A DNA stretch of 64,000 nucleotides from Anaerolineae bacterium (lineage in GTDB: Bacteria > Chloroflexota > Anaerolineae > UBA1429). Below, one piece after another: positions 38,270-51,403 of this stretch. The position numbers were made by a program, and so were the translations under genes. The notes under the pieces were generated by a model that saw only the letters and a program-made list of their open reading frames with translations, searched no databases and was not told the origin of the DNA. The DNA is taken from the NCBI GenBank assembly GCA_040766725.1, contig JAXGPZ010000001.1, positions 2,414,328 through 2,478,327 of the forward strand, written 5' to 3'. The first letter of the stretch is position 1. Each line of letters starts with the position of its first letter.

Positions 38270-38941
38270 CTAGGGCTGCAGGCTAAAGGGCGGGTACTTG
38301 TCGGTGACCAGGAGCGTCACATAGGCCTGCACGCGGAGCCCGTAGCGCATGACACCCACCACAAAGTCGAACAGCCCGCGCGGATAGCGACCTGTGAACA
38401 GGATTGCGAACCAGGCGATGATCACAAAGATCACCGCTACGATGGCCAGCACCGCCAGCACAACATAGTGGGGGATCGCCAGGAGCCACTTGACCAGCGG
38501 CATCCAGCGGTTGAGATCGTGCTGGACGTCGGGGTAGTCGATCTCGACGTGCACCGCTTGCTCGTCCTCGGTGGAGGGATACTGATCGGTGAGCAAGGCG
38601 GCATAGGCCCCCACTCGCGCGCTAAAGCGGGCCAGCTCGCGCGTGAACTCGAACCACCAGCGCGGGTAGCGCTGGCGGAAGAGGATCATCAGGCCGGTGG
38701 CCATCGCCAGCCCGCCGGCCAGTCCGCCAGCGGTGTCGCGTGTGCGCCTGAGCACTTCTCCCGCCTCGTTGACGAGCACCGTGTTGGTGACCGTCTGCCC
38801 AGCGCCTACCACCAGAGACAGGATGATGGCGATGGGTATGATCCACAGGATGCGGAAAAGCGTCGTCAGTCGGTCCAGTTCTTCTGGGTAGTCGATCTCC
38901 AGGCGTGCCGGATAGCTCGTGGGTATGGCTTTTGTCTCCAT
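38270..38941 (-). CDS. DUF4389-like membrane protein with an internal tandem duplication
   Basis: Two copies of IDYPE..L.R..LF..I..IPH/IA.L. with hydrophobic helices (IDYPEELDRLTTLFRILWIIPIAI and IDYPDVQHDLNRWMPLVKWLLAIPHYVVLAVLAI). AGAGGAAAG RBS. Confidence 0.65.
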   Translation of the reverse strand: METKAIPTSYPARLEIDYPEELDRLTTLFRILWIIPIAIILSLVVGAGQTVTNTVLVNEAGEVLRRTRDTAGGLAGGLAMATGLMILFRQRYPRWWFEFTRELARFSARVGAYAALLTDQYPSTEDEQAVHVEIDYPDVQHDLNRWMPLVKWLLAIPHYVVLAVLAIVAVIFVIIAWFAILFTGRYPRGLFDFVVGVMRYGLRVQAYVTLLVTDKYPPFSLQP

Positions 38942-39248
38942 CGCGCTTTCCTCTTTTCACTCATCGACAAGAGCCAGAGGACCCGGCGTCACCCGCCATG
39001 CCAGCGGCCAGCAGCCTGCAAGGCATGGCAGAGTGTCGCCCTTGCGAATATCATCTCCGATGGGCGTGCATATGTCAAGCCGAACGGGCGGCCGCAGGGG
39101 CGCTCTGGCGCGACGGGTGGGCGCCGTCTGGCCAAACCTCTTGGGCGGCAGGCCGTGGCGAGGCGGCCATGCTGTTGTGCTGACGAGGCGGTTAGGGGGC
39201 CTAGGCCCACTGCCTGGCGCGATGGCCATACGGCCTCTCGGCCCTGCC

Positions 39249-43752: not shown

Positions 43753-44490
43753 TCAGGTCAAAGGGATTTCCAGCTCGACGGCCGGCCCGATCGGCGCGAG
43801 CTTGTTCTTGAGCACCCGCACCTCGGCCAGCAGGCCCGTCACCTGGCGGCGGCGCTGTCGCCAGCGACGCCCCTCGCAGGCCAGCCGCAGGCTGGCGAAA
43901 TAGGGCAGCCCCAGCCCCTCGGGATACCAGTCCAGGCAGATCGTCTCGGTGAGCACCAGCAGCGTCGACATGGTGCTGTGCACCAGCGGCGTCCAGGCGC
44001 GCAGGGCCTGGTCGAGCAGGGCCAACGAGGCGTCCTCAAAGAGCAGCGGCTGCAGCCGGTCAAAGACGATCAGCGCCGCACCGCCCTCGGCCAGCAGGTC
44101 GCCGGTCATCTCGAGGGCGTGGCGAAAGCCGTGCGGCCGCAGGATATAGAGCCGGCGCAGGTCGATGTCGCGGCGCGCCAGCAGGTCCAGGTCGAGGCTC
44201 TGGTCGACATCGACATAGACAACGGCCTCGCCGCCGCGCTGCGTCTGCCGGATGAGGCTGGCCAGCAGCAACGCCTGCCCGCTGCTGCCCGCCGTCACCA
44301 GCTCGGTGACGCGCCCGCGCGGCAGCCCGCCGATGCCCAACGCCTGGTCGAGGGGGGCCAGGCCGGTGGATAGCACCGGCGGACGGGTGGCGGTCAGTTG
44401 CCGCATCGGGCGAATGGCGCGCTGGCCCCATTTGCGCTGCAGCAGCGTGACGGTCTGTTCGAGCTCATGTAAGCGTGCCTGCTTGGCCAC
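43753..44490 (-). CDS. imuA: ImuA (RecA/SulA-fold mutasome protein)
   Basis: It has a degenerate RecA-like P-loop region (VTELVTAGSSGQALLLASLI) and is the first gene of the cassette. The proposed start is GTG 44490 with a GGAGGG RBS. The upstream in-frame ATG at 44508 and TTG at 44535 lie inside the -10 and LexA box of the promoter and are unlikely to be translated. Confidence 0.6.
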   Translation of the reverse strand: MAKQARLHELEQTVTLLQRKWGQRAIRPMRQLTATRPPVLSTGLAPLDQALGIGGLPRGRVTELVTAGSSGQALLLASLIRQTQRGGEAVVYVDVDQSLDLDLLARRDIDLRRLYILRPHGFRHALEMTGDLLAEGGAALIVFDRLQPLLFEDASLALLDQALRAWTPLVHSTMSTLLVLTETICLDWYPEGLGLPYFASLRLACEGRRWRQRRRQVTGLLAEVRVLKNKLAPIGPAVELEIPLT

Positions 44491-44506
44491 GGCGCCCTCC
44501 AAAGCC

Positions 44507-44535
44507 ATGATACCGAACAAACGTTCGAGTGTCAA
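44507..44535 (-). promoter_or_regulatory. SOS promoter: -35 TTGACA, 17-nt spacer containing the LexA (Cheo-type) box CGAACAAACGTTCG at 44514..44527, -10 TATCAT
   Basis: Read directly on the minus strand: TTGACA CTCGAACGTTTGTTCGG TATCAT. GAAC-N4-GTTC is a perfect dyad matching the Gram-positive/Chloroflexi LexA consensus CGAACRNRYGTTCG. Confidence 0.65.
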
Positions 44536-44735
44536 TGGCGGGACGTATCGGCAGGCGCGGTGTGCTTGTGGCCCTGTCGCGCATCGCGGGGGATGGGGCG
44601 GGGCGTAGCGGCGCGTGGGGGCTACGGATGAACCGGCGCACCTGCAGCACTGGCATGACAGCTGCGCCGTGGCGTTCTATACTTGGTCCTCAAGCGGCTA
44701 TCGGCGCTCGCGATTGGCCTAACAGAGACTTGACG

Positions 44736-45683
44736 ATGGGCAGACTCTACATTGGCGTCACCGACAACGACTGGTTCCATTTCCTAGCAGCCCGCCGGCC
44801 CGATGAGGTCAACTTTTGGCTCCCGGGCGACCAGCGTCGCTTCCGCACGCTCGAAACAGGCGAGCTCTTCCTGTTCAAACTACACAGCCCCGATGACTAT
44901 ATCGTCGGCGGCGGCCTGTTCGTCAGCCACACCCTGTTGCCCCTATCCATGGCATGGGAGGTTTTCGGCACCAGCAACGGAGTGCCGGATCTGGCCACGC
45001 TAAGCAGCAAGATCAGGCACTACCGTGCCTCTAGAGGAGCCATCGGCCGCGACCCGACGATCGGCTGCATCGTGTTGGCCGAGCCGTTCTTCCTCGAGCC
45101 TGCTGCATGGTTGCCGATGCCAGCTGGCTGGCACAGGAACATCGTCCAGGGCAAATCCTACGAGATCGACAGCCCTGAGGGGCGCCGTCTGCTCGACAGT
45201 GTGCTGCCGCTGATGGGGCATCGCATTGGCTCGCCGGCCGTCGGAGAGGTTGCCCCCCGAGTCATTGCAGAGGAGGGGCCACGATACGGGCCCGAGACCC
45301 CCATCAGACCGCGGCTCGGTCAGGGGGGCTTTCGCATCGTGGTCACTGAGGCCTATGAGCGGCGCTGTGCTGTCACCGGCGAGCGCGTACTGCCCGTGCT
45401 GCAGGCATCGCACATCAAGCCCTTCTCATTCGAAGGGCCCAACACGGTGGACAACGGCATCTTGTTGCGGTCAGACCTGCACGCGCTGTTCGATCGTGGC
45501 TACCTGACCATCACCGAGGACCACCATGTCGAGGTTAGCAGGCAGATCGAGCAGGAGTTTCACAACGGCAAGGCGTATCGGCGCCTGCACGGCGCAGAGT
45601 TGTCGGTGTTACCGCAGCGCGAGGTAGAGCGGCCATCTGCAGAGTTCATCGGCTGGCATAACGAGCATTGCTACCGCGGATAG
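44736..45683 (+). CDS. HNH endonuclease with an N-terminal PUA-like (EVE/ASCH-type) domain; candidate modification-dependent (type IV-like) restriction nuclease
   Basis: The C-terminus RCAVTGERVLPVLQASHIKPFSFEGPNTVDNGILLRSDLHALFDRGYL is an HNH (HNH_2-like) motif. The N-terminus YIGVTDNDWFHFLAARRPDEVNFWLPGD...GELFLFKLHSPDDYIVGGGLFVSH has a PUA-like beta-barrel pattern. Confidence 0.65.
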   Translation: MGRLYIGVTDNDWFHFLAARRPDEVNFWLPGDQRRFRTLETGELFLFKLHSPDDYIVGGGLFVSHTLLPLSMAWEVFGTSNGVPDLATLSSKIRHYRASRGAIGRDPTIGCIVLAEPFFLEPAAWLPMPAGWHRNIVQGKSYEIDSPEGRRLLDSVLPLMGHRIGSPAVGEVAPRVIAEEGPRYGPETPIRPRLGQGGFRIVVTEAYERRCAVTGERVLPVLQASHIKPFSFEGPNTVDNGILLRSDLHALFDRGYLTITEDHHVEVSRQIEQEFHNGKAYRRLHGAELSVLPQREVERPSAEFIGWHNEHCYRG

Positions 45684-47004: not shown

Positions 47005-48003
47005 CTAGGGCTTGATCGCGGCGCGTCGCCAGGGGTCGGCCTGCAGGAATGCGTCTAGCATGACCTGCTTCTTTTCAGGCACTACACCGATGGCCTCGCC
47101 ATCGCCATAGTCGCTAAGGATAAAGCCGCCTTCGGGCGTCGCCCACCGCTCGAGCAGCAGTTGTGCCTCCTCGCGAATGTCGTCAGCGTCTTTGAAGGGC
47201 AGCGTGTGTTGAATATCACAGAGTGACTCGAAGCATATCCGACCGCGATACCTTGCGCCGATCTCCTCAATGCCCAAAGCGCGCGGCTGCTGCAAGTTGA
47301 TCACGTTGCAGCCGATCTCGATCAACGGCTCGATGACCTCGTTCACCTTGCCGCAGCTATGCATCCACACGTGCCAGCCCTTGGCGTGCATCGAGTCGAA
47401 AAGCACCTTGTATCGTGGCTTGAAAAACTCGTTCCACATCTTGGGGCTCACAAAGGTAGCGAGCTCGGTGCCCCAGTCATCAGTAAAGGAAAACCCGTGG
47501 ATCTGCCCGGGGAAGCGTGCATGGATATTCTCCATGATGCCCAGGTTGTACTCCATAACCTTGTCAGCCAGCCATTCCATGCTCTGCCGTTCGGCATACA
47601 GGTCTGTCAGTGTGTTCTGAAACCCATGCAACATGTGCATACGCTCGAACAGGAAAAACCCGATGCCGGTCATGATGTACTTGCCATCCGAGCCTTCGAA
47701 CCGCTCCTCCATGCCTTCATAGAACAGCGGGTTGTCGGGGTCAGGCCACCGATAGGAGTCCGCTTTGCTCAGATCTTCCAGCGGGTGCCCTTTGACCTGC
47801 CCCATATTGGACATCTCGGTCCGCTCCCACAGACACCCGAACCAATCATAGTCCTGACGTTTGGCACGGTCGCCCACGCCCTTGTTGTTCCAAGCCACAC
47901 CGAAAGTGTCATTGAGCCCCAGGAGCGCAAAGCGCACCGGTATGCGGTCAGGTGTTCGAAACTCGATCGCCCGCCGCACAACTTCGTATGATGACATGGC
48001 CAT
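47005..48003 (-). CDS. Uroporphyrinogen-decarboxylase-family (MtaA/MtbA/CmuA-like) methylcobamide methyltransferase
   Basis: N-terminus YEVVRRAIEFRTPDRIPV is URO-D-like. Putative Zn ligands are in WMHSCGKV (HxC) and a downstream Cys (FESLCD), as in MtaA. It lies 12 nt before the corrinoid protein gene. Confidence 0.75.
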   Translation of the reverse strand: MAMSSYEVVRRAIEFRTPDRIPVRFALLGLNDTFGVAWNNKGVGDRAKRQDYDWFGCLWERTEMSNMGQVKGHPLEDLSKADSYRWPDPDNPLFYEGMEERFEGSDGKYIMTGIGFFLFERMHMLHGFQNTLTDLYAERQSMEWLADKVMEYNLGIMENIHARFPGQIHGFSFTDDWGTELATFVSPKMWNEFFKPRYKVLFDSMHAKGWHVWMHSCGKVNEVIEPLIEIGCNVINLQQPRALGIEEIGARYRGRICFESLCDIQHTLPFKDADDIREEAQLLLERWATPEGGFILSDYGDGEAIGVVPEKKQVMLDAFLQADPWRRAAIKP

Positions 48004-48046
48004 GGCAGTCTCCTGATGCGTGGTAGATATGGCGCGAGGCAGACCG

Positions 48047-48895
48047 CTAGCCTTTGAGCCCGCTCATCGCCATGCCTTCGACGAATTGCCGCTGAAAGAT
48101 AAAGTAGACGATCAGGATAGGCACAGTGGCCACCGTGGTAAAGGCCATGACCGTACCCCAATCCACCGAAAACTCGCTATAGAAGCGCGTGACAGCAATC
48201 GGGATAGTGAACATCTCCGTTTCGTTGACCACAATGCTCGGCCACAGGAACGAGTTCCACGCACCCATGGCGGTGAACACAATCACCGTCGACACCGCCG
48301 ACTTGGACAGCGGCAATACCAGGCTGAACAGGATGCGCAGATCACTAGACCCATCTATGTAGGCCGCGTCGACCAGATCCGTCGGAACGGCCAGAAAGTG
48401 CTGTCGAAGCAGAAAGATAGCAAATGGCGTCATCAAGCCCGGCAATATCAGGCCGAGGTAGGTGTTTGTCAGGTGCAGGTTGCGCACCATGATATAGAGC
48501 GGGATAAGGATCACGTACGATGGGATCATCATGGTCAGTAGACACAAGGTGAAGACGGTATCGCGCCCTGGAAAAGTAAAGCGCGTCAGCCCATAGGCCA
48601 CGATGGCCGAGAGCAGAAGCGTAGTCAATACCTGGATCAAAGCAGTAAAGGCACTGTTGAAATAGACGCGTGGAATGTCCACCAGTCGCCAGGCTTCGCG
48701 ATAGTTGCGTAATGTGCCCAGTCCCGGCGTAATCCACCGCGGCGGGTAGGCCATCACCTCCGTATTGGGCTTGAACGAGGCCAGCGCCATCCACACCAGC
48801 GGCGCCAAGGCGATCACCGCGCCTGCCGTCAGCATGACGTAGATGATCCCTAGCAGAATCCACCTGCGAACACGAGGCCATCTGCTGGCCTGCAT
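48047..48895 (-). CDS. Sugar ABC transporter permease (MalG/UgpE-like)
   Basis: EAA motif DAAYIDGSSDLRILFSLVLP. ATG 48895 has a GGAGGAGGAG RBS. The track start 48913 is TTG. Confidence 0.85.
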   Translation of the reverse strand: MQASRWPRVRRWILLGIIYVMLTAGAVIALAPLVWMALASFKPNTEVMAYPPRWITPGLGTLRNYREAWRLVDIPRVYFNSAFTALIQVLTTLLLSAIVAYGLTRFTFPGRDTVFTLCLLTMMIPSYVILIPLYIMVRNLHLTNTYLGLILPGLMTPFAIFLLRQHFLAVPTDLVDAAYIDGSSDLRILFSLVLPLSKSAVSTVIVFTAMGAWNSFLWPSIVVNETEMFTIPIAVTRFYSEFSVDWGTVMAFTTVATVPILIVYFIFQRQFVEGMAMSGLKG

Positions 48896-48943
48896 AGGGC
48901 ACTCCTCCTCCAAAGCGACCGGCTGACGGGTCGAGGCTTGGAC

Positions 48944-49858
48944 CTAGTACGTTACCTCGCGCTCAACGACGCGCCGCTGGATGATCGTCACCAGTAGGAT
49001 CACGAGCGTCAACACAATGCCCATCGCCGTGCCATAGCCCAGCCGAAGATATTGGAACGACTCGCGATACAGCAGATAGACTGGCGTCCAGGTGCTGTTG
49101 AGCGGTCCGCCAGCAGTCATGAGGAATGGCTGCATGAACACCTGAAAGCCCCAGATGCCGTTTAGGATGATGCACAGCACAATGGTGGGGTTGAGCAGTG
49201 GAATGGTGATGCGCAGCAACTGCTGCATCGAGTTTGCTCCGTCAATCCGCGAGGCCTCATAGTACTCTCGGGGAATGTTCTGCAGGCCCGCCAGAAAGAT
49301 CACTGTGTAAAAGCCCACGCCCTTCCACACGTCCATCAGGGCGATGGATTCCATGGCTTGCTTGGGCGATGAGATAAACTGCTGTTTAGGAATGCCCAGC
49401 TTCCCGAGGTAGTAGTTGATCAGCCCCATCGAGGGCGAATACAGCGACGTGAACAGCACCGCGATGACGGTTAACGAGACGACGTTGGGCACAAAGTAGA
49501 CCGTCCGGAAAAAGCCCCGCAAGAACTGCAGATTATTGAGCGCCAGTGCGGCCAGTAGCGAAAGCACCAACGTTAGGGGTATCTGCACCACCATATATCT
49601 GCCCACGTTGGCATAGCTCTTGAGGTAGAGATCATCTTGCAGCATTGTCCTAAAGTGCTGCAAGCCGACAAAACGCGGCGTCTCATAGAGTGTCTCAAAC
49701 TCGCGGAAACTGAGCCAAAATGCATAGAGCAGCGGAAAGAGCCAGAATATCAGAAAGAAAAGCAGGTATGGTGAAAGAAACGCGTAACCCTTCAGCACCT
49801 GGCGATGCCGGTACAACAGCCGGTCGATCTTTTCGCCCAGGCTGGGTTTCTCTGGCAT
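48944..49858 (-). CDS. Sugar ABC transporter permease (MalF/UgpA-like)
   Basis: MPEKPSLGEKIDRLLYRHRQVLKGYAFL... EAA loop YEASRIDGANSMQQLLRITIP. Start chosen at ATG 49858. The RBS is distant, so the start is uncertain. Confidence 0.75.
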   Translation of the reverse strand: MPEKPSLGEKIDRLLYRHRQVLKGYAFLSPYLLFFLIFWLFPLLYAFWLSFREFETLYETPRFVGLQHFRTMLQDDLYLKSYANVGRYMVVQIPLTLVLSLLAALALNNLQFLRGFFRTVYFVPNVVSLTVIAVLFTSLYSPSMGLINYYLGKLGIPKQQFISSPKQAMESIALMDVWKGVGFYTVIFLAGLQNIPREYYEASRIDGANSMQQLLRITIPLLNPTIVLCIILNGIWGFQVFMQPFLMTAGGPLNSTWTPVYLLYRESFQYLRLGYGTAMGIVLTLVILLVTIIQRRVVEREVTY

Positions 49859-49957
49859 CACAGCGCGAGTAGCCAAGTCTCTCCTTTCTCCCCGTCTCCA
49901 TAGGGAGCACCCGGAGCGAACGCAGAGCATCCGCTCCGGGGTCATGCTGCACAAAAC

Positions 49958-51403
49958 CTATCTGGCGGCGCGCGCCTCTTGGACAGCCTGGAGCAGCTTG
50001 TCGAACTCGGCGCTGGCGGTCTCCATCGCTTCTTCGACGGGCTTGTTCTCAAAGAGAATGCTCTGGTACTCTTGCTGGATCACGGCTTCGATACGAGTGT
50101 ATTCCATGCCCACCCGAGGAATGCCGTTGACCGCCAGGGCTACCGCTTGTTTGTGCTGCGGAATGCCCTCTTCTAGATAGGGATGATCGCCCATGTCGTT
50201 GCGGGCTGGCGTGTAGTAGTTTCGACCAAAGTCGGCTTCCTGATCGGCCTGCGTGCAAAAGTTGATCCAGTCCCAGGCCTCGGCCTTGTGCTCGGCGATC
50301 TTGAAGATCACCTGGCCCATGCCATCGCCCACGCCCGTCACAGCGGGCTCCTTTTTCTTGGCGTTGGGCGGGAGCGGATAGCCCATTGGCGCCCAGCGGA
50401 ACTTGTCACCGATGGCATCCTGCATGCCCTTGTAGCCACGGTTCGACGGCGTGAAGGAGATCGGGACAAGCTGGTCGTTGAAGAAGCTGGTACCTGGCGC
50501 AGGCTTCTCGGGCGATACCCAACCCTTGTCAAAGATGTCCTTGAACAGCTTGACCGTGTTCACCACGGGCTCGGTGTTCAAGAGCGACTTGAACTCTGTG
50601 GTGTCGGCGATGGTGACGATCGAATCGGTATACATGCCCGGATACGAAGCCAGATAGAGCATGATGGCCCAGGCGGTGTGAACAAGCATATCCACCGGCC
50701 AGTTGCCACTTCCCTGCAGTTTCTCCAGCCAGACGAGGTACTCTTCCCAGGTCTTGGGCGGCTTGTCAGCATCCAGCCCGGCCTTGTCGACCATATCGAG
50801 GTTGTAGGTCGGGCAGTGAATGTCGATGCAGTTGGGCATGATGTAGACGTCTTCCATATCGAGCTTCAATCGCTCGATCATCTGAGGGAAGATCGCCTTT
50901 TCCAGGTCCGAGTAGCCGGGGTAGACGGTGTCGTCATTCAGCTTCTCGAGCACCTGCAGACGCACAAACTCGTACGTCCGCAACGTGTGGAGCCACATGG
51001 TGTCGGGGCGTTCGCCAGCCGCCAGCCGTGTGATCATGCGCTCCTCGGTCTCACCTGGGGCGGCTGCATACGACTTGGAGAGCACGTCCACGTCGGGGAA
51101 CTGCTCCATAAAGCGCGGCGCGATGGCGGCGAAAGTCGGCTCTAGCGCTGCTCCCTGAAAGCCATAGATGGCCAGTTCGACCTTTTCTTTGGGCGCAGGG
51201 GGAGCGGTCGCGATCTTCTCGACCACCTTCTCGACGACCTTGGGCGTGCCCTCGACGATGACGGTCTCCTTTACAACCTCCTTGACAACCTTCTCGACCT
51301 CGACGACCTTGGGCTGGCAAGCGGCCAGCAACGCAGCGCCGGCTCCGGCACAGCCGAGGCGCAACACAGCACGTCGTGTCAACATTCTTCCCTGAATCGC
51401 CAT
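49958..51403 (-). CDS. Sugar ABC transporter substrate-binding lipoprotein (family 1)
   Basis: MLTRRAVLRLG, lipobox LLAAC, VVEVEKVVKEVVKETVIVEGTPKVVEKVVEK linker. AAGGAGGG RBS before ATG 51403. Confidence 0.85.
   Translation of the reverse strand: MAIQGRMLTRRAVLRLGCAGAGAALLAACQPKVVEVEKVVKEVVKETVIVEGTPKVVEKVVEKIATAPPAPKEKVELAIYGFQGAALEPTFAAIAPRFMEQFPDVDVLSKSYAAAPGETEERMITRLAAGERPDTMWLHTLRTYEFVRLQVLEKLNDDTVYPGYSDLEKAIFPQMIERLKLDMEDVYIMPNCIDIHCPTYNLDMVDKAGLDADKPPKTWEEYLVWLEKLQGSGNWPVDMLVHTAWAIMLYLASYPGMYTDSIVTIADTTEFKSLLNTEPVVNTVKLFKDIFDKGWVSPEKPAPGTSFFNDQLVPISFTPSNRGYKGMQDAIGDKFRWAPMGYPLPPNAKKKEPAVTGVGDGMGQVIFKIAEHKAEAWDWINFCTQADQEADFGRNYYTPARNDMGDHPYLEEGIPQHKQAVALAVNGIPRVGMEYTRIEAVIQQEYQSILFENKPVEEAMETASAEFDKLLQAVQEARAAR

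Follow-up and report, generated by a model that had tools for sequence, protein, structure and literature searches.

In an Anaerolineae bacterium, a translesion-synthesis operon of four genes very probably stands under SOS control, as judged from a predicted LexA operator that fills the spacer between the two core hexamers of its promoter. The operon lies on the minus strand of the 64-kb stretch of DNA analysed here (the window) and is led by an imuA-like gene (imuA below), whose probable start, on our analysis, is 18 to 45 bases downstream of the one given by several gene callers. The literature describes both the motif and a LexA-regulated cassette of this kind, so the locus belongs to a well-described class: in Firmicutes and Actinobacteria the LexA motif is GAAC-N4-GTTC (PMC4951493), with variants in Cyanobacteria and Chloroflexi according to Fernandez de Henestrosa 2002, as cited in PMC4951493; imuA-imuB-dnaE2 has been termed a LexA-regulated cassette (PMC6511836), and the literature on this cassette (Erill et al. 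2006, as cited in PMC4951493) places it in the core SOS regulon. The reading of box and promoter is thus right but ordinary, an expected instance of a well-known arrangement and not new in kind.

Table 1. Features of the imuA promoter, of the genes behind it and of the divergent neighbour; positions are those of the window
Feature	Positions	Strand	Basis or remark
-35 hexamer TTGACA	44530..44535	-	sequence; best promoter-like match in 38-48 kb
Spacer CTCGAACGTTTGTTCGG	17 nt	-	between TTGACA and TATCAT; holds CGAACGTTTGTTCG
Predicted LexA operator CGAACGTTTGTTCG	44514..44527	.	fills the -35/-10 spacer; core GAAC-N4-GTTC at 44515-44526
-10 hexamer TATCAT	44507..44512	-	sequence and consensus scan; overlaps ATG 44508-44506
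Predicted transcription start zone	44498..44502	-	6-10 nt past the -10; from usual sigma-70 spacing
Shine-Dalgarno GGAGGG	44495..44500	-	followed by CGCC, i.e. 4 nt ahead of GTG 44490
imuA-like, RecA paralogue, 245 aa	43753..44490	-	RecA Pfam, E 7.7e-25
imuB-like, predicted inactive Y-family polymerase core without C-terminal extension, 392 aa	42565..43743	-	IMS Pfam
Standalone ImuB-C (DUF6504), 84 aa	42308..42562	-	PF20114 matches in orthologues; profile alignment
dnaE2 (imuC), error-prone Pol III alpha paralogue, 1020 aa	39249..42311	-	NF004225, 1091.7 bits (cut-off 939)
HNH_2 gene, divergent from imuA	44736-45683	+	resembles phosphorothioated-DNA-binding restriction endonucleases

The imuA promoter and its box

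Read along the minus strand, positions 44535-44488 are TTGACA-CTCGAACGTTTGTTCGG-TATCAT-GGCTTT-GGAGGG-CGCC-GTG. The sequence-only reading had described this stretch as a TTGACA and a TATCAT hexamer separated by a 17-nt spacer that holds a GAAC-N4-GTTC dyad, and re-reading the minus strand bears out every one of its coordinates (Table 1). The spacer length falls within the 16-18 nt of sigma-70-type promoters, the hexamers match at 11 of 12 positions, and a consensus scan ranks the site first among the promoter-like sites between 38 and 48 kb, of which five were seen against 0.9 expected. The operator matches the Cheo-type palindrome CGAAC-N4-GTTCG at all 10 specified positions; the 64-kb window holds one exact copy of this palindrome, with 0.07 expected, and one exact copy of the shorter GAAC-N4-GTTC, with 0.45 expected. 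The box overlaps the core promoter of an imuA/imuB/dnaE2 operon, a known SOS-regulon gene set.

The arrangement was followed through 10 distinct loci encoding ImuA homologues, fetched by exact-protein look-ups, whose ImuA proteins are 98, 75, 72, 69, 53, 47, 47, 46, 44 and 40% identical to that of the window and whose genomic neighbourhoods differ. GAAC-N4-GTTC lies just upstream of imuA in all ten; nine of them have the full order of TTGACA, 3-4 nt, the box, 2 nt and TAnnAT, with the start codon 15-19 nt past the -10. When the loci are aligned on the box, conservation is confined to the box and its two hexamers, with no conserved column in the 40 nt farther upstream, and purine-rich GGAG/GAGG stretches occupy the Shine-Dalgarno position. 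Comparison of these loci shows the arrangement of promoter and box to be, on its pattern of conservation, under selection. The flanks of the box vary, being CTC...GGT in the window as against TA...TA in most orthologues (TAGAAC-N4-GTTCTA).

The more distant ImuA relatives carry the names Chloroflexi or Anaerolineae, and a scan of a genome collection with peptide patterns taken from the ImuA alignment returned ordinary recA genes (~30% identity) and no true orthologues. Two of the loci (L087, at ~6353, and L089, at ~6288 and ~7661) carry extra copies of a ~70-nt repeat that ends in TATAAT-A-GAAC-N4-GTTC-GC, so that a -10-like hexamer stands immediately before the box; in L089 one of the copies is found 164 nt ahead of the box of the imuA promoter. 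This repeat is absent from the window.

The sequence is compatible with a simple switch. A LexA dimer covers ~20 bp or more, so that in an undamaged cell a dimer seated on the CGAAC-N4-GTTCG operator would reach into both hexamers and deny RNA polymerase access to the promoter. RecA-stimulated self-cleavage of LexA relieves repression; after DNA damage this cleavage would free the imuA promoter, and transcription would begin ~7 nt past the -10, near 44500 as judged from spacing. The resulting leader would be ~10 nt long and begin with the Shine-Dalgarno sequence GGAGGG; ImuA would be translated from GTG 44490 as a protein of 245 aa, and the three downstream genes would follow by translational coupling. 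A leader of ~10 nt that opens directly with the Shine-Dalgarno sequence is short, and the precise point at which transcription begins is guesswork. In this scheme LexA binding, occlusion of both hexamers, the start site and induction by damage are all what we infer.

Recurrence of the design and identity of the repressor

We scanned public metagenomes for TTGACA-N3-4-GAAC-N4-GTTC-NN-TA and found at least 120 loci. The first ORF downstream of each match listed was taken, giving 107 ORFs in all, and these were classed by BLASTP and Pfam. By BLASTP, the 107 ORFs among the matches listed include 27 LexA homologues, eight RecA-like and four ImuB-like proteins; by Pfam, the same ORFs among the matches listed include 26 with Peptidase_S24, 12 with LysM, nine with LexA_DNA_bind, six with RecA, five with IMS (Y-family polymerase) and two with UvrD. 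Since S24/LexA, RecA-like, Y-family and UvrD ORFs stand behind the design, the design marks SOS genes. At one metagenomic locus (L113) this promoter design is followed by the same cassette of four genes.

The named owners of lexA among the matches listed are Syntrophales, Gallionella, Casimicrobiaceae, Patescibacteria and Chloroflexota, the last with two lexA genes among the matches listed, from Ca. Limnocylindria and Limnocylindrales; a homologue search started from a metagenomic LexA gave close Limnocylindrales relatives as all of its best 120 matches. Because these owners span several lineages including Chloroflexota, we read the design as a widespread SOS promoter, typical of autoregulated lexA and used in the phylum to which the window belongs.

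Two further features of the metagenomic loci may be recorded here. Small LysM proteins are known LexA targets adjoining actinobacterial lexA, and at six loci (L156, L164, L173, L177, L187 and L206) the ORF behind the design encodes a LysM protein of 79-83 aa, with a second GAAC-N4-GTTC just past the -10. Many metagenomic lexA genes with this design, among the matches listed, have their ATG 6-7 nt past the -10 and look leaderless, including those at L124, L136, L150, L153, L154, L157, L212, L213 and L221; the imuA genes of the window's lineage, unlike these leaderless-looking lexA genes, have a gap of 15-19 nt and a Shine-Dalgarno sequence.

What protein would occupy the box is a separate matter from the reality of the operator. 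A tblastn search of the window and of 15 fetched loci, with the LexA proteins of E. coli and B. subtilis as queries, gave no lexA, and the cassettes of other phyla often bring a lexA copy of their own (PMC4951493; PMC6511836). Both would suit an operator bound by something other than the housekeeping LexA, either a second, LexA-like S24 paralogue that serves the cassette alone or a dimeric regulator unrelated to LexA that reads GAAC-N4-GTTC. We consider this improbable: no repressor gene adjoins the cassette in any of the ten orthologous loci, the motif is the canonical LexA motif, and among the matches listed the design precedes 26 S24/LexA genes, Chloroflexota included, which is consistent with autoregulation. 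Control by the housekeeping LexA is the reading that we carry forward.

The start codon of imuA

Counted from GTG 44490 to the stop at 43753, imuA spans 738 nt and would encode 245 aa. Within one cluster of 90% identity, gene calls give 245 aa (PGAP and JGI), 251 aa (from ATG 44508), 276, 299 and 300 aa. The sequence-only reading had held that the annotated starts sit inside the promoter and that the true start is most likely GTG 44490. The first statement can be verified in part: ATG 44508 is publicly called (251 aa) and, as had been claimed, overlaps the -10, since ATG 44508-44506 falls on TATCAT 44512-44507; TTG 44535 is simply the mechanical start of the longest ORF.

The second statement is upheld by comparison with homologues, whose N-termini align at GTG 44490, and by the form in which the upstream stretch is conserved, with the promoter kept as DNA and not as peptide. 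In the protein alignment most homologues begin M-x-K/R..., in register with the V-A-K that starts at GTG 44490; among distinct homologues, the nearest have 244-245 aa and their first residue aligns with it, as do the start codons of the orthologous loci. Over-extended calls in two relatives read 'LTIEQMFYIM' and 'LTSERLFYII', which are promoter and box in translation. A strain that is 98% identical differs by a 1-nt indel directly upstream of the -35 (CCCGCATTGACA vs CCCGCCATTGACA); an indel at this place shifts the upstream frame, and the stretch above the -35 is therefore non-coding. If transcription begins where spacing suggests, ATG 44508 would be unusable because it would lie upstream of the transcript.

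These data bear equally on the view that translation truly begins at ATG 44508 (251 aa) or TTG 44535 (260 aa), with the promoter farther upstream and TTGACA...TATCAT as coding sequence. Some callers do give 251, 276, 299 or 300 aa for the same gene or for near-identical strains, and the reading frame stays open back to 44535. Neither codon, however, is preceded by a Shine-Dalgarno sequence; the extension is kept as DNA motifs and not as peptide and is absent altogether from most homologues; the indel in the 98% identical strain breaks the frame just upstream; and a consensus scan of the minus strand from 44535 to the divergent gene gave no other promoter-like site. An upstream start is thus very unlikely, and GTG 44490 is retained as the probable start. 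The correction is not new, since the PGAP call in a sister Anaerolineae MAG is already 245 aa.

Least credible of all is that palindrome and hexamers are a chance match without regulatory role: chance alone would give the 12-nt GAAC-N4-GTTC 0.45 times per window, but the 14-mer just 0.07 times, the region's best promoter match has the box precisely within its spacer, and chance is effectively refuted because the same arrangement is conserved in all ten orthologous loci with nothing else upstream conserved.

A probable four-gene operon with a split ImuB

Behind the promoter, imuA and imuB are separated by 9 nt that carry a GAGGTGA ribosome-binding site, imuB and the ImuB-C gene by 2 nt, and the ImuB-C gene and dnaE2 share a 4-nt ATGA overlap. 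With two such short gaps and an overlap, the four genes look like one operon whose members are translationally coupled. The claim that the whole four-gene cassette stands under the SOS promoter gains from this tight packing and from the occurrence of the same design elsewhere mostly ahead of lexA and other SOS genes, and we hold it to be the probable arrangement. At the distal end, a promoter-like site on the minus strand (39050-39078; TTGACA, 17 nt, GATGAT) lies ~170 nt past the dnaE2 stop and before a DUF4389 gene at 38270-38941; this suggests that the SOS operon ends at dnaE2.

On the other side of imuA, the protein of the divergent HNH_2 gene scores 75 bits with NF045808, below the cut-off of 180, and the gene has its own promoter-like site at 44655-44683. 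LexA control of this gene was considered and rejected, as that site has a GTTC half-site only; the intergenic region between imuA and the HNH gene holds no second box. Rfam and tRNA scans of the window gave no matches. The G+C content of positions 48001-50000 is 0.563, as against 0.62-0.74 elsewhere in the window.

The first protein of the operon matches the RecA core only. It scores 45 bits with the NCBIfam ImuA model, below the cut-off of 150, and 88 bits with RecA models, and its Walker A motif is degenerate (GSSGQA): RecA GPESSGKT aligns with TAGSSGQA, with the lysine replaced by Q and the threonine by A. In the imuB-like protein the catalytic SIDEAY of DinB aligns with SLGLAY, and because of this replacement the polymerase is predicted to be inactive. 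The ImuB-C domain is not fused to the C-terminus of ImuB but lies on a separate ORF. PF20114 (DUF6504) is matched by six of nine orthologues of the 84-aa protein, and a profile of the 84-aa family matches residues 389-461 of an ImuB-like protein of 464 aa in which the domain is fused (93.8% probability, E 1.7e-7); since the profile matches these C-terminal 73 residues of a fused ImuB-like protein and orthologues match DUF6504, we assign the 84-aa ORF as a standalone ImuB-C domain. The 84-aa protein had no sequence relative in the PDB.

Set beside known systems, the operon resembles the imuA-imuB-dnaE2 cassette (Erill et al. 2006, as cited in PMC4951493; mycobacterial imuA'-imuB/dnaE2, PMC10421592) in joining a RecA-derived accessory protein and a dead Y-family polymerase (both here as predicted) with DnaE2 in one operon, and in having a LexA-type box, likewise predicted, in its promoter. 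Unlike that cassette, it has ImuB split into a 392-aa core and a separate 84-aa ImuB-C, its ImuA scores nearer to RecA than to the ImuA model, and no lexA is attached to it. The predicted operator is like the Cheo-box (GAAC-N4-GTTC) LexA operators of Firmicutes, Actinobacteria and Dehalococcoides (Fernandez de Henestrosa et al. 2002, as cited in PMC4951493) in being a perfect CGAAC-N4-GTTCG 14-mer over the core promoter; it differs from them in that most orthologues of the window's lineage have TAGAAC-N4-GTTCTA. The closest parallel for the split is the set of standalone ImuB-C operons (PMC6511836; PMC3765255), where an inactive Y-family polymerase without C-terminal extension is likewise followed by an ImuB-C gene and dnaE2; those operons, however, are reported from genomes that have no imuA, in the operon or elsewhere, whereas a RecA-like ImuA leads the operon of the window.

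The composition of the cassette is thus a more unusual point than the LexA box, and it remains a lead. A 2019 survey by Timinskas and Venclovas reported operons with a standalone ImuB-C exclusively from genomes that lack imuA (PMC6511836), and the layout of a RecA-like ImuA, a split ImuB and DnaE2 is conserved across an Anaerolineae-centred lineage (the window, L084-L101 and L113). It is possible, though we would put it no higher than tentative, that this layout is an undescribed mutasome arrangement and that the lineage is either a survivor of a stage before fusion or a case of secondary fission, readings that arise because the same survey proposed that a Y-family polymerase and ImuB-C fused to give ImuB, and that a duplicate of RecA gave rise to ImuA (PMC6511836).

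The practical gains are that the start of imuA is fixed at GTG 44490 where automated pipelines disagree, and a rule for curators, namely that GAAC-N4-GTTC, where TTGACA precedes and TATAAT follows it, identifies the DNA as non-coding promoter sequence. The design is strongly tied to SOS genes and could therefore seed the prediction of SOS regulons in uncultured lineages. For the biology of the group the meaning is modest: the Anaerolineae, with few cultured members, join the lineages that carry an error-prone cassette apparently under SOS control.
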